The notes below the pieces were generated by a model. The model saw only the letters and a program-made list of their open reading frames with translations. It was not told where the DNA came from and searched no databases. A program made the position numbers and the translations under genes. From Frankiaceae bacterium (GTDB taxonomy: Bacteria > Actinomycetota > Actinomycetes > Mycobacteriales > SCTD01): a DNA stretch of 46,217 bases. The stretch covers positions 1 to 46,217 of the forward strand of contig JANPHZ010000158.1 in assembly GCA_031424715.1 (NCBI GenBank). The letters are read 5' to 3'. Each line of letters opens with the position of its first letter. The stretch's first letter is position 1. Shown here one piece after another: positions 2,776 to 38,237 of this stretch.

Positions 2776-4329
2776 CTAGCGGGCGTGGCGAGCCCGAAGG
2801 ACCAGGCCGGCGCCGGCGAGCGCCAGTCCGAGCAGCCCCACGGCGATCGGCGTCACGGGCAGCGAGCTGCTCGATCCACCAAAACCGCTCGAGACCGATC
2901 CGCGGGGTGCAGAGCTGCCCGCCCCAGTGCTCGAGCTGGCCGAGGAGCCGCTGCTCGTGCCCCGAGCCTGCGTGCTGGATCCGGAGTGCGGCAGCGCGAC
3001 GTAGGGGAAGGTCGAGCCGAACTCGAGGTCGTTCTCGTTCACGGCGTCACCGGCAGCGAGCGGCTTGATGATGCCCTTGGTGATAGCGCCCTCGAGCGCC
3101 TGCAACTCGATGTCGACGACGTCGTCGGTGAGGCGACGGCCGTTGGGGAAGCCGGCGTTGTCCTTGGCCAGCACACCCAAGCGGTTGGGGCTGCTGCTCG
3201 GCGGGATCTTGGTGTTGAGCCGCAGCTGCTCAGACGGCGTGACCTTCGGGGGCTGGTTCAGGCCCTTGATCCCGGTGAGGAACGCGGCGACGAGGTCGTC
3301 GCGGGGTGCTGCGGGCGCTTCGATGCCGTAGATGCTCGCGATCAGCTTGGGCACCTCTGGGTCCTTGACTCGCGCGACAGCCTCCATGACGGTGGCGTCC
3401 TGGTCGGGGTTCAAGGAGTTGAACGCGTCCTTGAGCGACACCGGGATGACGACCTCGTTGACGAGCGGTGAGCCCAGTCGGGAGACCTGCACGAAGTCGC
3501 CGGTGGGCGTGGCCTTGCCGGCGGACAGCTGCAGCGTCTGCTGATCGGTGGTGCTCCAGACACCGATGATGCCGCTGTTGTCGCCACCCTTGAGGAGGTT
3601 GGCGGTCGGCACCTGCAGCGCGATGGAGTTGACGTTGTAACCCGTCAGAGTGTCGCTGCCGGCCTCCTTGAGGTTGGTGCCGTAGAGCAGGTCGAACACG
3701 CGCAGGTCGAGGAAGAACGAGTCATCCGCCTGGCCGGCGAAGCTCTTGCCGCCGTCGGTGGTGTCCACGATGGCCTCGTCGCGCAGCGCGGCGTAGTTGG
3801 GCATGGAGGCCATGCCGACGTTGGAGGGGGCCGTCTTGCCGCTCTCCACGAGCGTGGTGGCCGTGCCGGCCGCGTCGAGGACCTCGAGCTTGTAGGTCTG
3901 CTTGAACAGCAGCGTCGGGTCGTCGAAGGAGTTCACCGCCCCGTTGTTGTAGAGGAACGTGGTTCCGGCGCGCTTGTCGTCGTTGGTGAAGGTCCACCGG
4001 TAGGTCAGGTCCGGCTTGGCGTCACCGTTGTTGTCGATCTTGATGTTGTAGCGGTAGCCCTCAGCGCCGAACGGGTAGAAGTTGGGGCCGCCAGCCGCGT
4101 CCTGGAACGGAATCCAGTTGGCGATCAAGGTGGTCGTCTCCGGGCTGTCCGGGCTGACGAAGGCGTAGGTGTCGGTGTTGTCCGACAGCGGGTTGCCGGC
4201 GATGAGCGGCGCCTCGCGGTGACTCGACGCCGTGCCGGTGCCGGGAGCGAGCGCGAGGGCGCTGCCCGTGACTGCGAGACCGGCGGCGGTCAGGGCCGCG
4301 CCTGCTCTGCGGGTTCTGGAACGGTTCAT
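2776..4329 (-). CDS. Secreted DUF4331 family protein (paralog A) with a C-terminal sorting-signal-like anchor
   Basis: 517 aa. Signal peptide with RR (MNRSRTRRAGAALTAAGLAVTGSALALAPGTGTA), then the DUF4331 hallmark SSHREAPLIAGNPLSDNTDTYAFVSPD. A Ser/Gly-rich linker leads to a C-terminal LPVTP + hydrophobic stretch + RARHAR. AGGAGA lies upstream of the ATG. Confidence 0.85.
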   Translation of the reverse strand: MNRSRTRRAGAALTAAGLAVTGSALALAPGTGTASSHREAPLIAGNPLSDNTDTYAFVSPDSPETTTLIANWIPFQDAAGGPNFYPFGAEGYRYNIKIDNNGDAKPDLTYRWTFTNDDKRAGTTFLYNNGAVNSFDDPTLLFKQTYKLEVLDAAGTATTLVESGKTAPSNVGMASMPNYAALRDEAIVDTTDGGKSFAGQADDSFFLDLRVFDLLYGTNLKEAGSDTLTGYNVNSIALQVPTANLLKGGDNSGIIGVWSTTDQQTLQLSAGKATPTGDFVQVSRLGSPLVNEVVIPVSLKDAFNSLNPDQDATVMEAVARVKDPEVPKLIASIYGIEAPAAPRDDLVAAFLTGIKGLNQPPKVTPSEQLRLNTKIPPSSSPNRLGVLAKDNAGFPNGRRLTDDVVDIELQALEGAITKGIIKPLAAGDAVNENDLEFGSTFPYVALPHSGSSTQARGTSSGSSASSSTGAGSSAPRGSVSSGFGGSSSSLPVTPIAVGLLGLALAGAGLVLRARHAR

Positions 4330-4478: not shown

Positions 4479-5996
4479 TCAGAGCAGGTCGCGGCCGGTC
4501 ACGATGCCGCGCGCCACCAGACCGATGCCGACGAGGACGACCACGGCAGCAGTGAGGACCGGCAAGAGCCGCCCGAGGTTGCGGGTACGGCCAAGCGCCC
4601 AGCCCCGCCGGTCGATGACGGCTTGTGTTCGGAGCAACAGCAGACCGGCGGCGGTCAGCGTGACGGCCATGCCGAGCCCGTAGATCAGTACGAGCAGGAC
4701 GCCGAACCACGCGCGGCCGAGGGCCGTCGCTCCGAGAAGGACGACGAGGGCCGAGGGGCTGGGTACCAGGCCGCCAGCAACACCCATGCCGGCCAGGGTC
4801 CGCCAGCCCAGCGGTCCATCCGGTAGGGGCGCGTGTGAATGGGCCTTGCCGCCGTGGCTGTGCACGAGCCGCTCGGGAGCGGGCTCGGGATCGTGGTCGT
4901 GGGGATGAGGATGGTCGTGCGTGTGGTCGTGCGTGTGGTCGTGCGTGTGGTCGTGGGGGTGGTCGTGCGTGTGCGCTGGTGTACTGCGGACACGACGAAG
5001 AGCCAAGACCAGCAGGTAGATGCCCAGGCTGGCGAGCAGGATGCCGGACACGATCTCGGTCAGCGGTACGACGCGCTCCGGCGCGGCCAGCGTGCCGAGC
5101 GTGAGCAATGCCCCCAGCAGGAGCACTGACGCCGTGTGGGTGAAGGTCACGATCGCACCCAGTTGCAGGGCCTGCCGCCTCGTGCCTCGCTGGCCGATGA
5201 GGTAGGCCGCCATGACGGTCTTGCCGTGTCCGGGAGCCAGCGCGTGCACGATGCCGAAGGCCAGCGACGCAAGGATCGACATGACGGCGAACCCGACGGT
5301 CAGGTCATCTCGGCCGAGGAAGTCGGTGAAGAAGGCGGTCACTCCGCCCACGCCGCGTGGCAACGCCTCGGCGATCGGGTCCTTGCCGGATGCGCCCGCT
5401 GACGAGCAGGGCCCTGGTGAGTACGACGCGCGACCGGACCGGACATCCAGTGGCGACGAGAGGAGGTCCTCTGGGTACGCCGTGAGGAGCGCGGATGTCG
5501 ACACCGCCGGGACGTCGGCGTTACCCAACCGGCCGCAGCGGCTGGCGAGAGTGACTTCCTTCCAGCCCACGCGGCCGTCACCCTGCCCGGCGTCGAAGGC
5601 GAGGGAGGAGCGCGGCGAGGTGCTGGCCGCCAGTTGACACTCGAGCCGCGTCGTCGTGAGCCCGCCAGAGCCCGGCCGGGACTCGCCGCGAGTCGCCCGC
5701 AGCGCCAGATCGGCCGGCGAGCCGTCGACGGTCAAGGACAGCTCTGGGGCGATCCGCGCGCACTCACGCGCGGCGAACCCGTCCAGGCCTCCGGCAGCAC
5801 GGATGTCGCCGCGCGCCTGCACCGTGGGAATCTCGGCCAGGTCGATGACGTGCAGGACCTCGACGCCCTCGGCGACAACGGTGACCTGATCAGCCGTATT
5901 CACCGTGAAGTTGCCGAGAGGGTGCGCGAGGGCAGGCGCGGCTGGCAGAAGGGCGAGTGCCGTGCCCACGACGAGTACTGCAAGCAGTCGCCTCAC
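4479..5996 (-). CDS. RcnA/NicO-family (nickel/cobalt-type) metal transporter with an N-terminal extracytoplasmic domain and a His-rich loop
   Basis: 505 aa. Signal peptide MRRLLAVLVVGTALALLPAAPALA, a ~200-aa soluble domain, then a polytopic part with the HALAPGHGKT signature and the loop HTHDHPHDHTHDHTHDHTHDHPHPHDHD. 4-nt overlap with the upstream TPR gene stop. Confidence 0.8.
   Translation of the reverse strand: MRRLLAVLVVGTALALLPAAPALAHPLGNFTVNTADQVTVVAEGVEVLHVIDLAEIPTVQARGDIRAAGGLDGFAARECARIAPELSLTVDGSPADLALRATRGESRPGSGGLTTTRLECQLAASTSPRSSLAFDAGQGDGRVGWKEVTLASRCGRLGNADVPAVSTSALLTAYPEDLLSSPLDVRSGRASYSPGPCSSAGASGKDPIAEALPRGVGGVTAFFTDFLGRDDLTVGFAVMSILASLAFGIVHALAPGHGKTVMAAYLIGQRGTRRQALQLGAIVTFTHTASVLLLGALLTLGTLAAPERVVPLTEIVSGILLASLGIYLLVLALRRVRSTPAHTHDHPHDHTHDHTHDHTHDHPHPHDHDPEPAPERLVHSHGGKAHSHAPLPDGPLGWRTLAGMGVAGGLVPSPSALVVLLGATALGRAWFGVLLVLIYGLGMAVTLTAAGLLLLRTQAVIDRRGWALGRTRNLGRLLPVLTAAVVVLVGIGLVARGIVTGRDLL
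4912..4971. repeat. 12-bp tandem repeat (tggtcgtgcgtg, about 5 copies, one variant) encoding the (HTHD)n part of the transporter His-rich loop
   Basis: Read directly in the sequence at 4912-4971; in frame (12 bp = 4 codons). Confidence 0.85.
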
Positions 5997-10609: not shown

Positions 10610-11731
10610 GTGCGTGAGCTGCACGTCGTCGCCCTGAGCGAGGACGGACGCTCGGTCCTGCTGGCGCCGAGCAAGAAAGCCCCCGTCGGCGCCTTCCGGG
10701 TCAAGCTCGACGGCAAGCTGTCCGCCGCGCTGCGGGGGGAGCTGCCCCGGGAGGGCGAGAGCGGCCCGCGCGCCGTCGAGGTCTCGCCCAAGGAGATCCA
10801 GGCGCGCATGCGCGCGGGTGAGTCGGCCCAGCAGATCGCCGATGCCGCGGGGGTGCCGGTCGCCCGGGTCGAGCGCTTCGCCGGACCGGTGCTGTCCGAG
10901 CGCGAGCGGATCATCGACCAGGCCCGCGCGGGCTACCTCACCCGCGGTCGTCTCGGCCCCAGCCAGCTGCCGCTGGGCGACGCGGTGCAGGCCGCGCTCG
11001 CCGAGACCGACTCGCTCAAGACCGAGTCAGTGCAGTGGTCCACCCGTCGGCTCGAGTCGGGGCACTGGCTCGTGCAGGTCAGCTACGTCGCGCGTGCGCG
11101 CGCCAAGACGGCCAGCTGGGTGTTCGACGCGGGAACCCGAGCCCTCACGGCCTCCGATACCGCCTCGTCGGCACTGGGGCACCGCAGTGACGTGCCTGCG
11201 ACCGGGGCCGCTGCCGCGGTCGCGGCGGTAGCAGCTGCGGCGCACCGGGCGGCCTCGGGTTCTGCCGGCGCCCGGCGTACGACGCGGACGGCGAAGAAGG
11301 CGGTGGCTGCCAAGCCGGCCAAGAAGGCCAGTCCGGCCAAGAAGGCCAGCCCGGCCAAGAAGGCCAGTCAGCCCAAGAAGGCGGTGGCCGCCACACCGGC
11401 CAAGAAGGCGGTGGTCGCGAAGCCGGCCAAGAAGGCGGTGTCCGCGAAGACGGCGGTGCCCGCGAAGACGGCGGTGCCCGCGAAGACGGCGGTGCCCGCG
11501 AAGACGGCGGTGCCCGCGAGGAGGGTGGCCGCCAAGCCGGCCAAGAAGGCCAGCGCTCCGAGGACGATGAGCCCGCCCGCCCTGCGCGTGGTCCCGCCGC
11601 CCCCGGCCCCGGTCCAGGAGCCGGAGGAGCTGCAGCAGCCGCGCAAGCGGGCCGCCGGCGAGCGTGCGACCGTGCCTGCATGGGCCGACGTACTGCTCGG
11701 GATCTCGCCCCGGGACAAGGCAGACGGCTGA
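10610..11731 (+). CDS. sepH: Septation protein SepH (DUF3071 N-terminal domain, basic Ala/Lys/Pro-rich repeat region, conserved C-terminus)
   Basis: 373 aa. MRELHVVALSEDGRSVLLA... and EIQARMRAGESAQQIADAAGVPVARVERFAGPVLSER are typical of DUF3071/SepH. Then come PAKKA/AKTAVP repeats. GGAGGA lies before the GTG. Confidence 0.8.
   Translation: MRELHVVALSEDGRSVLLAPSKKAPVGAFRVKLDGKLSAALRGELPREGESGPRAVEVSPKEIQARMRAGESAQQIADAAGVPVARVERFAGPVLSERERIIDQARAGYLTRGRLGPSQLPLGDAVQAALAETDSLKTESVQWSTRRLESGHWLVQVSYVARARAKTASWVFDAGTRALTASDTASSALGHRSDVPATGAAAAVAAVAAAAHRAASGSAGARRTTRTAKKAVAAKPAKKASPAKKASPAKKASQPKKAVAATPAKKAVVAKPAKKAVSAKTAVPAKTAVPAKTAVPAKTAVPARRVAAKPAKKASAPRTMSPPALRVVPPPPAPVQEPEELQQPRKRAAGERATVPAWADVLLGISPRDKADG
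11444..11515 (+). repeat. Perfect 18-bp tandem repeat x4 (gcgaagacggcggtgccc = AKTAVP) inside sepH
   Basis: Read directly; in frame. It is embedded in a wider degenerate (P)AKKA(S/V) repeat region at about 11290-11550. Confidence 0.9.
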
Positions 11732-12483
11732 GCAGCGCCCCACGGCTGCTGACAGTGCTGCTGGCTGCGGCGCTGAGCATGGTGAGCATGGTGAGCGGGT
11801 GCGCCGGCCCGGTGAGCACCGAGCGCTCGCAGGGAGTCAGCACCGGCTTGGCGCGCCTCGACGCTGCCATCGTTGGTTTCGACGCGGCGCGAACCAGGGC
11901 GCTCGCGCAGGCCGGGGCGCCCGTGACGGCAGCCCGGGCGCTCGACGATGCCGACGCAGCGGCGGCGCAGGCCGATCAGGGGGTGGCCGCGCAGGCGCGC
12001 CGGCGTAGCAGGGTGGCGGTGCCGGCGGCCCGCGCGGCGCTCGCCGGACTGGCTGCCACCCTGCGCGGCTATCGGGCCGGGGCCGTCGAGCTGGCCGCTG
12101 CCGCGCGGGCTGCCAGCAGCCTCGATGACATCCAGCGCGCCGCGCTGAACGAGGTGGTCCAGGCCGCGGAGGCGGAATCGGACGCGATCGACGCGTTCCG
12201 GGTGGCCGGGCAGTCGGCGTGGCCGGCCTACGCGTCGCTCGACGAGGCTCAGGGCGTGTGGCTCACTCGCGCCGGCGCCGGGTGGTACCGCGACGCCACC
12301 GAGTCAGCCAACGCCTACGCCGTGCTGGTGCAGGACCAGCGGCTCGCCCTGGAGCAGGCCCGGACATTGCTGCGCCGGGTCGACGTCGCCCGCCGCCCCG
12401 CCAGCGCCAGGGTGCAGACGTCGCTGCGCGCGGCCACCGCCGCGTTGGCCTCCCTGCGCTCGCCAGGCCAGCCCGGCAGCTGA
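11680..12483 (+). CDS. Ala-rich putative lipoprotein (start uncertain)
   Basis: 267-aa track ORF overlapping the sepH 3' end. Contains RLLTVLLAAALSMVSMVSGCAG (lipobox). The true start may be later (ATG near 11779). Confidence 0.5.
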   Translation: MGRRTARDLAPGQGRRLSSAPRLLTVLLAAALSMVSMVSGCAGPVSTERSQGVSTGLARLDAAIVGFDAARTRALAQAGAPVTAARALDDADAAAAQADQGVAAQARRRSRVAVPAARAALAGLAATLRGYRAGAVELAAAARAASSLDDIQRAALNEVVQAAEAESDAIDAFRVAGQSAWPAYASLDEAQGVWLTRAGAGWYRDATESANAYAVLVQDQRLALEQARTLLRRVDVARRPASARVQTSLRAATAALASLRSPGQPGS

Positions 12484-35014: not shown

Positions 35015-35644
35015 ATGACGTGGAACGTGCGCTCTCTGCGCGACGACGCTCGCGGGGTCGCGCGGGTGCTGCGCGACCTCGCGCCCGATGTGGTGCTGGT
35101 ACAGGAGGCCCCGCGGCTGTGGCGCTGGCGCTCGGCCTGCGCGCGGCTCGCCCGCGAGGCGGGACTTGTCGTGGTGACCGGCGGCCGGCCGGCGGCGGGC
35201 AACCTGCTGCTGTGCTCGATGCGCGTCCGCGTGGTGTCGTCGTACGACGTGCTGCTGCCCAAGCGGCCCGGTCTGCACCGCCGTGGTGCGGTCGTCGCCA
35301 CGCTGGAGGTGGGTGGGGTGTCGTTCACCGCCCTTGGCACGCACCTGGACCTGGACCCGCAGGCACGGTTGGAGTCAGCGCGAGCGCTCCGTGCACACGA
35401 CGCCGACGTCATCGGGGCAGACGTCAACGAGGAAGCCGGCGCCCCCGCTTGGTCGGGCCTGTCGGCGGGCCTGGTCGACTGCGGTGCGCAGGCGGGGCCG
35501 ACCTTCCCCGCTCGCGCACCCCGGCGCAGGATCGACGCGCTGCTCGTCTCCCCGCGCTGGTCGGTGGCGAGTGTGCAGGTGCCCGACTGCGGCCCGGTCA
35601 CCGACCACCGCCCCGTCGTCGCCGACCTGAACCTGCCGGGCTGA
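35015..35644 (+). CDS. Endonuclease/exonuclease/phosphatase (EEP) family protein
   Basis: MTWNVRSLRDD ... DVVLVQEAP ... C-terminal VTDHRPVVADL, typical of the EEP fold. Confidence 0.8.
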   Translation: MTWNVRSLRDDARGVARVLRDLAPDVVLVQEAPRLWRWRSACARLAREAGLVVVTGGRPAAGNLLLCSMRVRVVSSYDVLLPKRPGLHRRGAVVATLEVGGVSFTALGTHLDLDPQARLESARALRAHDADVIGADVNEEAGAPAWSGLSAGLVDCGAQAGPTFPARAPRRRIDALLVSPRWSVASVQVPDCGPVTDHRPVVADLNLPG

Positions 35645-35647
35645 CCT

Positions 35648-35684
35648 GCCCGCCGCACCCGCGCCCGCCGCACCCGCGCCCGCC
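35648..35684. repeat. C-rich 15-bp direct repeat, about 2.5 copies (gcccgccgcacccgc)
   Basis: Read directly. It immediately abuts palindromic element copy A on its outer (left) side. Confidence 0.8.
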
Positions 35685-35752
35685 CAAGATCATTGTCTGT
35701 GGAGACGACTGCCGCGCCGGCGTGTCGCGCGCCAGACAGACAACGATCTTGG
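35685..35752. repeat. 68-bp palindromic element, copy A (caagatcattgtctgt ... acagacaacgatcttgg)
   Basis: It matches the 36884-36951 copy at both ends and over a 28-nt internal run (gccggcgtgtcgcgcgccagacagacaa). The terminal arms are inverted repeats of each other. It lies between the convergent stops of the EEP and DUF559 genes. Confidence 0.85.
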
Positions 35753-35823
35753 AAAGGGGGTGCCGCGGTGGGGGCCGAGCGGAGACGGGACGGCCGGAGG
35801 CCAGCGCCGGAGGCGAGGGGCGG

Positions 35824-36795
35824 TCAGCGCCAGATGTGGGCCGGGGGTGCGGGCAACAGTGACGGTGGGGGAGCGGTCACCCGCAGCCGGGTGGCCTGCT
35901 CTGCCGCTGCGCGTCCCACCCGACGTCGTACGGCCGCTCGGCCGCGGCGAACGTCAGGCCACGTCACGCGCAGCAGCCGGTAGCCGTGGTCGGCGACGGT
36001 GGCCTCGCGATGACGGTCGACGAAACGCGCCTCGGGCAGGGTGTGCGGTCCGGCGCCGTCCGACTCGACTCCGAGCTGCAGCGCGCGTACGCCGTGGTCA
36101 AGGGCTGCCAGGACCTGGTCGTCGTCGTACACGAGCAGCTGAGGCTCAAAGGCTGGAAGCTGCGGATGCCACAAGGTGATGCGGGTCAGCGTCTCTAGCG
36201 GCGACTGGGCTCGGCCCTCGACCCACCGCCCGCACCAGCGCAGCGCCGGCCCGCCCGGGCGAGCACGCAACCGGGCGGCGGCCGTGGTGATCAGTGGCGT
36301 GCTGGTCAGGCGAAGGCGTACGGCGGCGTCGCAGGCGCAGAGCAGCGCGTCGAGCCCCACCAAGCGCGACAGGTCGAGCAGGGTGCGCAGCGGGGTGGTG
36401 AGCCGGATGCCGTCCACGCTGATGACGTCGGCGTCGTCGTACGCCCAGCGATGGGCGATCAGCCGGGGGCGGCCCCCCAGGCGTCGCCCGGTGAGGACAT
36501 CATCGAGAAGCCGCTCCGGCGCCGGGCCGTCGTCGATCAGCGGAAGTCCCCACCACCGCGCTGCCGTCCGACCGCACGCGACCGCTTCGTCGTCGGCCAC
36601 GGCCAGCGCAGCGGCAGCGCGTTGCCGCGCGTCGGGCACGTGCCCGGCATCGGTCAGGGCGCCGGCGTGGATCTGCTGCCACTCCCGACCGATGCGTCCC
36701 GCGACCTGATGACGGGACAGTCCCGCGTCCTGCGCTTGCGCCGGCGTCCATACGCCGAGCCGGTGTGCGCCGAGGTCAGCGAGCGTTGCGTCCAT
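35824..36795 (-). CDS. DUF559 (Vsr/restriction-endonuclease-like fold) protein with an AbiEi-like N-terminal HTH region
   Basis: The start is taken at Met50 (MDATLADLGAHRLGVWTPAQAQDAGLSRHQVAGRIGREWQQIHAGAL) of track ORF 35824..36942. The C-terminus LGVESDGAGPHTLPEARFVDRHREATVADHGYRLLRVTWPDV resembles DUF559. Confidence 0.65.
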   Translation of the reverse strand: MDATLADLGAHRLGVWTPAQAQDAGLSRHQVAGRIGREWQQIHAGALTDAGHVPDARQRAAAALAVADDEAVACGRTAARWWGLPLIDDGPAPERLLDDVLTGRRLGGRPRLIAHRWAYDDADVISVDGIRLTTPLRTLLDLSRLVGLDALLCACDAAVRLRLTSTPLITTAAARLRARPGGPALRWCGRWVEGRAQSPLETLTRITLWHPQLPAFEPQLLVYDDDQVLAALDHGVRALQLGVESDGAGPHTLPEARFVDRHREATVADHGYRLLRVTWPDVRRGRAAVRRRVGRAAAEQATRLRVTAPPPSLLPAPPAHIWR

Positions 36796-36883
36796 CGCAC
36801 GAGGGTGCGGGTCGCGGTCGACGCTTGTGCCGGCGCGGGGCTCGGCTGTGGGCAACCACGGAGCTTGTGGACAACCGCTCTCG

Positions 36884-36951
36884 CAAGATCGTTGTCTGTC
36901 TCGCGCCCCGACACGCCGGCGTGTCGCGCGCCAGACAGACAATGATCATGA
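36884..36951. repeat. 68-bp palindromic element, copy B (caagatcgttgtctgtctcgcgcc ... ggcgcgccagacagacaatgatcatga); can fold into a ~25-bp imperfect hairpin
   Basis: Read directly and aligned by eye to copy A. It lies about 90 nt upstream of the DUF559 start and downstream of the TIGR00300-like gene stop. Confidence 0.85.
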
Positions 36952-37007
36952 GGGCGGGGCGGGGCGGGGCGGGGCGGGGCGGGGCGGGGCGGGGCGGGGC
37001 GGGGCGG
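36952..37007. repeat. Pentanucleotide microsatellite (GGGGC) x10 plus a partial unit; G-quadruplex-prone on the + strand
   Basis: Read directly at 36952-37007. It ends right at the stop codon (37008-37010) of the neighbouring minus-strand gene. Confidence 0.95.
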
Positions 37008-38237
37008 TCAGGCGCCGGCGTACGACGGGACGAGATCGCGGGCGAGCTGCTCGAGGAAGAGCCCGATGTCGGTCACGATCCCGACGGCCTGAGCCGAACC
37101 GCGGTCAGCGAGCTTGGTGACCGTCGCCGGGTTGATGTCGACGCAGACGAGGGGCACGGAGGCCGGGAGGATGTTGCCGGTCCCGATGGAGTGCAGCATC
37201 GTCGCGACCATGATGGCGAAGCCCACGCCGGGCAGTTCGGCCCGCATCGCGCGCTGGCCCTCGATGACGTCGGTGTAGACGTCGGGCAGCGGACCGTCGT
37301 CCCGGACGGACCCGACGAGGACGAACTTCTTGTGCGCCGTGACCAGCGCGTGCATGACTCCGCCGGTCAGCGTTCCGTCGGACACCGCCGCCGCGATCGA
37401 CCCGCAGCGGCGCACCGTGTTGATGGCCCTGATGTGGTGCTCGTGCCCGTGCTCGACGCCCTTGCCCTGGGCCAGGTCGACGCCGAGCGAGGTGCCGTAG
37501 AGAGACGACTCGATGTCGTGCGTGGCGAGCGCGTTGCCGGCAAAGAGCACGTCGACGTAGCCGGCTTCGACCAGGGCGACCATGGCGGGGGCAGCTCCGG
37601 TGTGCACCACCGCCGGCCCGCCGACCCAGAGGATCTTGCCGCCGTCGGCCTTGACCTCGCGCATCCGCTGCGCGATCTGCCGCACCAGCAGAGCCTGCGG
37701 CTTCTCGCTCGACACCGAGGACGACATGAACTCGAAGGCGTCGTTGGCGCTGTGCTCGCGCGGCGGCAGGACGACGCGCACCCCGGCGGCGCCGCAGACC
37801 ACCTGGTCTCCTGCCTTTACGTCGGATACGGGCACGGTGTGCACCCGGTTGCCGGTCACCACGAGGCCGCAGTCCATCTCCGGCTGCTCGACCGGGATCC
37901 ACTCTCCGTCCAGGCGTACGACGGTCTCGAGGTTGGTCGTGGAGTAGAAGTCGTCCGGGAACACGCCGTCGCGCTCGGCCGGCTTGAGGACCGCGAGCCC
38001 CGGGTCGACCTGGTTGACCCCGTGCGTCTGCAACCGCATGAGCAGGCGTGCCAGGCCGGCGGCGTCCTCAGACGTCACGGTGATGCGCGCGTAGGACTCG
38101 TCGTCGTGAGCGCGCCCGACGTCGAGCTGGTCGATCCGGTAGTCCCCGCCGTAGCCCAGGACGTCGTCGAGCACCAACGCGAGGACGCCGGAGTCCATCA
38201 GGTGTCCGCTGACCTCGACTGTCTCGCTGGCCGACAC
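37008..38237 (-). CDS. TIGR00300 / LOR-SDH-like family protein (archaeal-type ornithine cyclodeaminase-like)
   Basis: 409 aa. The N-terminus VEVSGHLMDSGVLALVLDDVLGYGGDYRIDQLDVGRAHDDESYARITV matches the LOR/SDH conserved N-domain pattern as I remember it. The Rossmann-like C-terminal part includes ILWVGGPAVVHTG. Confidence 0.75.
   Translation of the reverse strand: MSASETVEVSGHLMDSGVLALVLDDVLGYGGDYRIDQLDVGRAHDDESYARITVTSEDAAGLARLLMRLQTHGVNQVDPGLAVLKPAERDGVFPDDFYSTTNLETVVRLDGEWIPVEQPEMDCGLVVTGNRVHTVPVSDVKAGDQVVCGAAGVRVVLPPREHSANDAFEFMSSSVSSEKPQALLVRQIAQRMREVKADGGKILWVGGPAVVHTGAAPAMVALVEAGYVDVLFAGNALATHDIESSLYGTSLGVDLAQGKGVEHGHEHHIRAINTVRRCGSIAAAVSDGTLTGGVMHALVTAHKKFVLVGSVRDDGPLPDVYTDVIEGQRAMRAELPGVGFAIMVATMLHSIGTGNILPASVPLVCVDINPATVTKLADRGSAQAVGIVTDIGLFLEQLARDLVPSYAGA

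Follow-up and report, generated by a model that had tools for sequence, protein, structure and literature searches.

A nuclease gene bracketed by two copies of its own palindrome: a candidate REPtron-like unit in Actinobacteria

Contig JANPHZ010000158.1 of a Frankiaceae bacterium (assembly GCA_031424715.1), whose 46,217 nucleotides are referred to here as the window (G+C 70.8%), carries a 1.36-kb segment at positions 35,645 to 37,007 in which a single gene is bracketed by two 68-bp imperfect palindromes, copy A (35685-35752) and copy B (36884-36951). The gene encodes a protein combining an AbiEi-like winged helix-turn-helix (wHTH) domain with a Vsr/DUF559-type nuclease domain, and most homologues that could be assessed lie between matched palindromes of their own. 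The segment separates an endonuclease/exonuclease/phosphatase (EEP) family gene from an ArgZ-like gene; the site at which these two genes adjoin each other directly is called the empty site below. The locus is organized as follows, with coordinates of the window.

35015..35644, plus strand: EEP family gene (Pfam PF03372, E 1.8e-15), the left neighbour, convergent with the insert; left edge of the empty site.
35648..35684, no strand: C-rich 15-mer (GCCCGCCGCACCCGC) repeated 2.5 times on the outer side of copy A (Tandem Repeats Finder, TRF; 100% matches).
35685..35752, no strand: palindrome copy A, arms AAGATCGTTGTCTGTCTGG and CCACAGACAATGATCTT, interior of the right half degenerate; 71.9 bits with covariance model R1; 71 nt past the stop codon of the nuclease gene (its downstream side) and 40 nt past that of the EEP gene.
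35824..36795, minus strand: gene for an AbiEi-like wHTH and Vsr/DUF559 (MTES_1575-type) PD-(D/E)xK nuclease of 323 amino acids (PADLOC, Pfam, AlphaFold (AF2), Foldseek).
36847..36872, minus strand: two (G/T)(T/C)CCACA motifs about 12 nt apart, between copy B and the ATG; candidate promoter or operator.
36884..36951, no strand: palindrome copy B, the better palindrome of the two, centre CGACACGCCGGCGTGTCG; 76.5 bits with covariance model R1; upstream of the nuclease gene, 89-156 nt before its ATG and 56 nt past the stop codon of the ArgZ-like gene.
36952..37007, no strand: (GGGGC/GGGCG) microsatellite of 11.2 units on the outer side of copy B, reaching the stop codon of the ArgZ-like gene (TRF score 112).
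37008..38237, minus strand: ArgZ-like gene of the LOR-SDH family (Pfam PF21570, E 4e-100; PF04455; PF21571), the right neighbour; right edge of the empty site.

A sequence-only reading of this stretch had described two 68-bp palindromic copies with identical ends, a 28-nt identical core and a 15-nt differing patch, and on re-checking all of these coordinates proved to be right. The identical block, GCCGGCGTGTCGCGCGCCAGACAGACAA, occupies 35716-35743 in copy A and 36915-36942 in copy B; it occurs nowhere else in the window and found no chance match in 100 shuffles. In the whole window there are exactly four occurrences of the end motif GATCNTTGTCTGT, one at each palindrome arm, and the two copies differ within the internal patch at 35701-35715 and 36900-36914, respectively. 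Direct and inverted global alignments of the copies tie at 40 versus 40, in agreement with the earlier statement that their orientation cannot be told apart; the outer arms carry an A at arm position 5 and the inner arms a G, so that the outer arms are slightly closer to each other. Both copies fold into long hairpins on either strand with stabilities far above those of shuffled controls (z = -4.1 to -6.9; copy B -5.3 to -6.9). Window positions 35242-36981 are matched at 100% identity by a 1,740-bp contig from run SRR20217182. No Rfam 15 family matched the palindromes at its gathering score, the best hit being a generic hairpin match to mir-4433 (23 bits versus a gathering score of 77). A scan of 35400-37200 for intrinsic terminators with a U-tract returned no terminator-like site, and the hairpins might still act as terminators independent of a U-tract; a scan for sigma-70 promoters at the locus likewise returned nothing. 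GATC is enriched 2.5-fold in the palindromes of the metagenome-assembled genome (MAG) clade only.

The enclosed gene at 35824-36795, whose start was set from homologues, is the only real gene inside the bracket, just as the sequence-only reading had it, and the one open reading frame (ORF) with homologues. Residues ~5-185 of the protein match AbiEi models (PADLOC, E 8e-11), and the C-terminus matches the Vsr-type domain REase_MTES_1575 (Pfam PF18741, E 1.4e-4, below the gathering score), which a survey of conflict systems describes only as a Vsr-family restriction endonuclease domain. A profile of the family matches the DUF559 structure 3hrl (E 1.4e-4). With the AlphaFold model (pLDDT 92.9) as query, Foldseek aligned the C-terminal domain to the catalytic domain of I-Bth0305I (3r3p) and to DUF559 (3hrl) with Foldseek probabilities of 0.94-0.98 (0.97 for 3r3p and 0.94 for 3hrl), and TnsA appeared as a weak structural neighbour. 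Seven residues (E201, D233, E244, D246, H251, D260 and R263) are invariant in 35 homologues, and dN/dS relative to the 91%-identical orthologue at locus L082 is 0.16, compared with 0.12 for the neighbouring EEP gene. By these comparisons, the gene is intact and constrained, with purifying selection and conserved residues of the catalytic core. NCBIfam holds no family for the protein. No AbiEii nucleotidyltransferase partner gene was found among the neighbours of the locus (EEP, ArgZ-like), nor in Tsukamurella. The family is large, with 4,960 clusters at 50% identity at E<=1e-30 and 28,449 at E<=1e-10, and it is chromosomal: a search of 50,697 phage records gave no protein match, and matches in a plasmid collection were confined to chromosome fragments or chromids labelled as plasmids, so that an origin from phages or plasmids was rejected. 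There is no recombinase ORF (tyrosine recombinases included) nearby, which bears out, in the classical sense, the earlier remark on their absence; the encoded wHTH-nuclease is itself the obvious candidate for the protein acting on the palindromes.

The association of this gene with palindromes is not peculiar to the window. In the closest homologues, P0002 (91% identity), P0003 (62%), P0004 (57%) and P0005 (60%), the gene directly follows the C-terminus of the ArgZ-like gene, and on each of their contigs it is bracketed by two 60-70-bp palindromes. These share the outer ends GATCGTTGT...ACAACGATC while their stems are lineage-specific (TTGTCTGTCTGG in one lineage, TTGTACGGCGAC in another), the same stem being present in both copies of one locus. 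The 15-nt patch by which upstream and downstream copies differ is already found in L082, which indicates that in this lineage the two copies have been inherited separately and without continual homogenisation. At a dS of 0.3 between the window and L082, copy A is conserved at 88% and copy B at 91% of positions, compared with 32-80% for the other spacers. More distant homologues (28-44% identity) reside at other genomic sites, and there too matched palindromes of 40-85 bp, spaced 1.0-1.25 kb apart, hug the ORF, with a palindrome sequence of its own at each locus. Overall, of 27 homologues that could be assessed (28-91% identity), approximately 22 lie between a matched pair of their own. When the flanks of each locus were aligned with each other locally, the best score at 14 of 18 loci was above the 99.9th percentile of 1,455 placements chosen at random in the same DNA. 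A blind search for matched flanks across all loci returned the cassettes already known and a new one in L039 (3101-3164 and 4124-4187), which surrounds a distant AbiEi-DUF559 ORF missed by tblastn and has a C-rich simple repeat just outside. When bracketing was predicted for five new loci, it was found at four (L108, L109, L111, L112). Among cultured organisms, Tsukamurella tyrosinosolvens NCTC13231 contains at least five paralogues, and the bracketing palindrome differs from one to the next; the layout is also present around two Arthrobacter genes and is missing around one Nonomuraea gene. The unit is thus a wHTH-Vsr/DUF559 gene between two copies of its own palindrome, each formed by two 17-23-nt arms around a variable centre.

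Pair orientation across 17 loci is direct in 11, inverted in five and tied in one (the window), and the five inverted pairs led us to reject a uniform direct-repeat or target-duplication model. Sense and antisense hairpins do not differ in stability among 30 palindromes (Wilcoxon p = 0.87), which indicates that the symmetry acts at the level of DNA and not as an mRNA element; an mRNA-specific structure was dropped as an explanation. The comparisons show a specific, recurrent partnership of the nuclease gene with its own palindromes, each paralogue having its own type. The notion that a generic pair of elements had captured an arbitrary gene, raised in the sequence-only reading, finds no support in this pattern, as the pairing is specific, recurs and involves paralogue-specific types.

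Each of the six palindrome types that were tested in a searchable genome recurs elsewhere in it. PLSDB lists "plasmids" of T. tyrosinosolvens NCTC13231 (NZ_LR134454.1 and sister records, L098-L109) that carry core chromosomal genes (gltB, pks13, fadD32, serS, purB); they are evidently chromosome fragments, and for this reason repeat counts on a genome-wide scale could be obtained from the plasmid collection. Matches to pal515 were found in three Tsukamurella records, to pal310 in eight, to pal230 in seven, to the L108 type in nine and to the L109 type in five, and the palindrome type of Arthrobacter ERGS1:01 occurs at 17 places in a 754-kb replicon. Eight solo sites were examined for their context (six in Tsukamurella, L019 and L033): all are intergenic, seven lie just past a stop codon and six lie between convergent genes. 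Among the six Tsukamurella solos (four pal310, two pal515), five start 4-12 nt past a stop codon; the neighbouring genes are convergent at four of the six, tandem at one and divergent at one (L100), where the solo lies between two gene starts. The pal310 solos keep perfect 23-nt arms around a variable centre of 17-19 nt. A target-site duplication could be recognized neither at the window cassette nor at the Tsukamurella solo copies. The suspicion that the palindromes belong to REP (repetitive extragenic palindromic) or MITE (miniature inverted-repeat transposable element) type elements is thus borne out insofar as analogous palindromes are dispersed in complete genomes and lie, at most of the sites examined, past stop codons between convergent genes; the pairing of gene and palindrome is not generic. 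By the criterion of the sequence-only reading, under which abundance after convergent genes marks a REP, the element class is REP-like.

TGA is the usual stop codon in high-GC actinobacteria. Several solos and one flanking copy in T. tyrosinosolvens (L104-L107, L099, L102) are preceded by a TAG stop followed by CC (TAGCC), which may represent a target preference or a stop codon contributed by the element. Other long palindromes were noted at L039 16440-16518 (79 nt, near-perfect), L077 16732-16820 (an 89-nt repeat structure) and L003 474-587 (two tandem 50-nt palindromes); none of these adjoins an AbiEi-DUF559 gene in the retrieved stretch, and they may be solo members of other families.

The junction between the ArgZ-like and EEP genes was compared in 80 loci around ArgZ-like homologues from species-representative genomes, mostly of Mycobacteriales and Frankiales MAGs. 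In approximately 27 of them the distance between the two stop codons ranges from -17 to +54 bp, and because the genes abut or overlap in so many relatives, the 1,363 bp between the stops in the window are extra sequence, that is, an insert. The empty site, with the EEP gene directly next to the ArgZ-like (TIGR00300-like) gene, had been named beforehand as what an uninterrupted arrangement would look like and is found in these relatives. Elsewhere the junction contains nothing (0 bp), a solo palindrome, a GNAT gene, one of two unrelated types of AbiEi-DUF559 unit, or 1-5 kb of other genes; the convergent ArgZ-like/EEP junction is an insertion hotspot. The closest relative, L002 (ArgZ 89% identical), has a GNAT gene there (11221-11763), and in L020 the junction is occupied by a member of the family with 34% identity and palindromes unlike those of the window. 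At the junction of L019, whose nearest relatives have overlapping genes, both stop codons are supplied by a solo palindrome in the style of the window copies; another lies next to the EEP stop codon in L033, and palindromes of this style are also present in L029 and L044. We rejected the idea that long gaps between the ArgZ-like and EEP genes are degraded cassettes, since L002, L010, L025, L033, L047, L064, L071, L073 and L044 hold different genes (GNAT, ABC ATPase and others). Palindromes were also noted just past the ArgZ-like stop codon in L008 (9362-9424, ATCATCGTGTCCGG...CCGGACACGATGATC, at a contig end) and L070 (~11260-11320, GTTTGTATCACTTGG...GAGTGATACAAAC), and these may be additional occupied or solo states of the hotspot. 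Locus L067 (JAJAYQ010000171.1) is labelled as a Spirochaetaceae MAG, yet its ArgZ-like and EEP genes are arranged as in Actinobacteria and an AbiEi-DUF559 gene is present; the contig is probably actinobacterial and was binned wrongly.

Between copy B and the start codon lie GTCCACA (36866-36872) and TGCCCACA (36847-36854). Both motifs are conserved in four of the five aligned orthologous loci (the window, L082, L085 and L086); the fifth, L087, aligns poorly here, and its ORF has probably been annotated with a start too far upstream. In approximately 11 of 15 cassettes, the upstream palindrome is followed by a TCCAC(A) motif. Motifs of the GTCCACA type may represent a promoter, an alternative operator or an operator bound by another factor.

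The simple repeats outside the palindromes are variable features. The C-rich tract at 35648-35684 is a variable low-complexity junction: the matching junction of the 91%-identical L082 has a different sequence (72% identity), and similar C-rich repeats lie outside the palindromes of L039 and L087. The microsatellite at 36952-37007 is missing or much shorter in L082 and L083, and a downstream GCCCC tract varies from (GCCCC)4 in L082 to (GCCCC)5 in L084. The mirror-image flanks had been described beforehand as a 15-mer repeated 2.5 times and a pentamer repeated ten times; the 15-mer at 35648-35684 and the inverted composition of the flanks hold (the outer flanks are 71% complementary over 48 nt), and the pentamer count is to be corrected to 11.2. 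G/C-rich tracts were observed just outside the palindromes of several units (the window; L039 at 2982-3105; the upstream flank of L087), and just inside the palindrome instead in the downstream flanks of L082 and L084. They vary among close relatives, from 11 units in the window to almost none in L082; their G-rich strand could form G-quadruplexes, and contigs tend to break at such tracts. Two further repeats lie elsewhere in the window. The ORF 10610-11731 (plus strand), whose N-terminus we take to resemble a SepH/DUF3071-type protein, has C-terminal PAKKA/TAVPAK repeats with periods of 18 and 27 nt (tandem repeats at 11289-11519), and positions 4912-4973 contain 5.2 copies of the 12-nt unit TGGTCGTGCGTG at 92% identity.

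By analogy with known systems, we consider it reasonably probable that the 1.36-kb segment is a unit of REPtron-like design, with a wHTH-nuclease instead of the RAYT (REP-associated tyrosine transposase). This reading is favoured because the evidence is of the kind by which RAYTs were originally connected with REPs, namely flanking copies, paralogue-specific types, solo copies at 3' ends and a constrained single-copy gene. The AbiEi-like wHTH domain, probably as a dimer, would recognize the conserved arms. AbiEi proteins repress their own promoters by binding inverted repeats, and the upstream copy together with the GTCCACA motifs could provide for autoregulation of this kind. The nuclease would nick or cut at or beside the palindrome, an activity that might create, maintain or spread solo copies and might once have moved the unit itself, and solo palindromes past stop codons could serve as bidirectional hairpin terminators. 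The protein probably binds its cognate palindromes and perhaps cuts them.

Several observations weigh against this reading. Neither sequence nor covariance-model searches found a third copy in the 46-kb window, and in 1.27 Mb of relatives' loci (blastn-short and covariance model) the only further matches were L019 and weak matches to palindromes of other cassettes. The exact-end pattern had no match in 185,579 species genomes of GTDB, nor in the viral collection IMG/VR; the palindrome is therefore lineage-restricted, or its source genome is absent from the scanned set. The lack of further copies in the window is expected anyway, because approximately ten copies per 5-Mb genome would give none in 45 kb, and dispersal of the window palindrome within its own genome is an extrapolation from other genomes. 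Where genomes could be checked, the palindromes are present in low copy number (approximately 5-20) compared with the hundreds typical of REPs, the pairs are of mixed orientation, unlike the usual inverted REPs around RAYTs, and the variable centres of the solos argue against recent copy-and-paste from one master. Palindromes were not detectable at L051 and L110 and were weak at L067 and RS09230. The GTCCACA motifs rather than the palindrome could be the real operator, and it is from sequence that we infer binding and cleavage in the AbiEi-DUF559 family.

An alternative, which we think improbable while taking it seriously, is an autonomous (or formerly autonomous) element resembling an insertion sequence (IS), of which the palindromes would be the ends, the nuclease a transposase working in the style of IS200/IS605, and the solos MITE-like derivatives, with the gene itself moving. 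The presence/absence polymorphism of the whole unit at the ArgZ/EEP junction, the 34%-identical member with different palindromes at the same junction in L020, and the position of units between housekeeping genes (e.g. purC and purB in Tsukamurella) would all be explained, and 11 of 17 pairs are direct, as are the ends of IS200/IS605; moreover TnsA, the weak structural neighbour, is a PD-(D/E)xK protein known as a transposition nuclease. However, each palindrome type has one associated gene copy and near-identical multi-copy cassettes were not seen, orthologues that are deeply diverged (57-62% protein identity) and under purifying selection still occupy one site, a search for a target-site duplication found none, and the family does not occur in phages and hardly at all in true plasmids. 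Regulation without any mobility, with the upstream palindrome as operator, the downstream one as terminator or second operator, and the solos as further binding sites or as ordinary terminators under selection, seems to us somewhat less probable than that. It fits what is generally known of AbiEi autorepression through inverted repeats, given the AbiEi-like N-terminal half, as well as the conserved arms and drifting centres of the solos, which are expected of dimer-binding sites, and the terminator positions of most solos examined; it leaves unexplained the retained nuclease core, an insertion that brought both palindromes along and the sites past the stop codons of unrelated housekeeping genes, and there is no U-tract signature of a terminator.

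That two unrelated, common GC-rich hairpin terminators happen to flank a horizontally acquired gene is very improbable and is the only alternative that we regard as effectively excluded. Both copies do lie downstream of the stops of convergent or tandem genes, and actinobacterial terminators are generally known often to lack U-tracts; but no chance match of the size of the 28-nt identical block is expected, and flanks match at approximately 22 independent loci compared with ~0.1% of random placements. The suggestion of the sequence-only reading that the palindromes are simply members of a terminator family likewise finds no support, as it does not account for two matching flanks at so many independent loci when random placements almost never match. 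That the segment can be inverted or excised had been suggested as well; a recombinase encoded elsewhere would then use the palindromes as its sites, and we found no evidence of invertibility. The indistinguishable orientation at the window, the slightly closer match between the outer arms than between the two arms of a single copy, and the L019 solo, which could be an excision product, are compatible with it; yet the attL/attR-like pattern comes down to one informative position that is shared with L082 by descent and hence to one observation, no allele in the inverted orientation was seen (L001 and L082-L084 share the same one), and no recombinase gene is nearby. We give this explanation almost no credence, and the idea of attL/attR hybrid sites was dropped, as the single position is shared by descent with L082 and the pattern is absent at other loci.

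The REPtron-like reading of the window unit can be extended to the family as a whole. The orphan AbiEi-DUF559 proteins of Actinobacteria might be the enzymatic partners of unrecognized REP/REPIN-like palindromic replicators, processing and spreading their cognate palindromes, a proposal that we regard as tentative and somewhat doubtful at this breadth. If true, the RAYT-REPIN relationship would have been invented a second time, by an independent mechanism, in the pairing of AbiEi-DUF559 proteins with palindromes. The unannotated "DUF559 / AbiEi antitoxin domain" proteins, which number in the tens of thousands, would gain a concrete role that can be tested, and structured intergenic repeats would be recognized as a family in Actinobacteria, among them Mycobacteriales of clinical relevance. 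The protein-palindrome pairs, with many natural specificities per genome, would be programmable and might provide orthogonal DNA-binding or DNA-cutting modules. In practical terms, the units break short-read assemblies (several contigs end at palindromes) and mark insertion hotspots between convergent genes. A literature search, which was not exhaustive, found no paper linking AbiEi/DUF559 proteins to flanking or dispersed palindromes, and the layout of a gene plus its cognate palindromes recurring across Actinobacteria has apparently been undescribed so far. To our knowledge, REP-type repeats and enzymes dedicated to them have hardly been described outside proteobacteria, and the enzymes in question have always been HUH transposases. 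For REPs of the CGTC type, no dedicated enzyme is said to exist (PMC3733652).

Compared with known systems, the unit resembles an integron cassette with its attC site in that a promoter-proximal gene is bounded by 60-140-bp imperfect palindromes with conserved ends and a variable centre; it differs in the lack of an integrase, an attI site and an array, and its host is a high-GC actinobacterium. An attC identity was rejected, since the ends do not fit the RYYYAAC/GTTRRRY core sites and no integrase is present. The solos recall MITEs as short, non-coding, two-arm intergenic elements related to the ends of a gene-carrying element; in contrast to MITEs, no target-site duplication and no classical transposase were identified, and each end of the unit is a full palindrome instead of a single arm. 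Elements of the IS200/IS605 group are likewise short one-gene elements with imperfect hairpins at both ends, often in direct orientation, and without classical terminal inverted repeats or an obvious target duplication. However, there is no TnpA (Y1) or TnpB gene here, identical elements do not occur in multiple copies, and the hairpins are much longer and symmetric on both strands.

The similarity to AbiE type IV toxin-antitoxin systems comprises the N-terminal 180 residues, which match AbiEi, and an upstream palindrome that fits AbiEi-style autoregulation. In contrast to AbiE, an AbiEii (DUF1814) partner is missing, the AbiEi module is fused to a nuclease, and there are a downstream palindrome and, in other genomes, genome-wide solos. 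With the Vsr-fold proteins (Vsr, the DUF559 protein NGO0050 (3hrl) and I-Bth0305I (3r3p)) the C-terminal domain shares its fold and its acidic/His core, and I-Bth0305I shows that this fold can serve a selfish, site-specific nuclease. Unlike I-Bth0305I, the gene lies outside any intron or intein and there is no evidence of homing, and unlike Vsr it is not coupled to a cytosine methyltransferase.

The closest parallel is provided by REPtrons, i.e. RAYT genes flanked by REP or REPIN repeats (Nunvar 2010; Bertels & Rainey 2011; Ton-Hoang 2012; PMC3733652, PMC5581495). In both cases a single-copy, largely vertically inherited gene lies between two palindromic repeats of which solo copies are dispersed in the same genome (here in Tsukamurella and Arthrobacter), and several paralogues per genome each have their own repeat type. 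Of the solos examined here, most lie no more than ~20 bp from the 3' end of a gene, the majority of them between convergent genes, and such solos can provide stop codons; the conserved inverted arms around a variable spacer resemble REPIN doublets. On the other hand, the enzyme is a wHTH and PD-(D/E)xK nuclease and not an HUH Y1 (IS200-like) transposase, and the hosts are Actinobacteria. The palindromes are longer (40-85 bp), are present in approximately 5-20 copies and form pairs of mixed orientation, and the biochemical link between gene and repeat is a proposed one; furthermore, the arms in the window begin with AAGATCGTTGT and carry no GTAG/CGTC tag. With a different enzyme, no tag and mixed orientation, the unit is an analogue of REPtrons and not a member of the RAYT/REP family.

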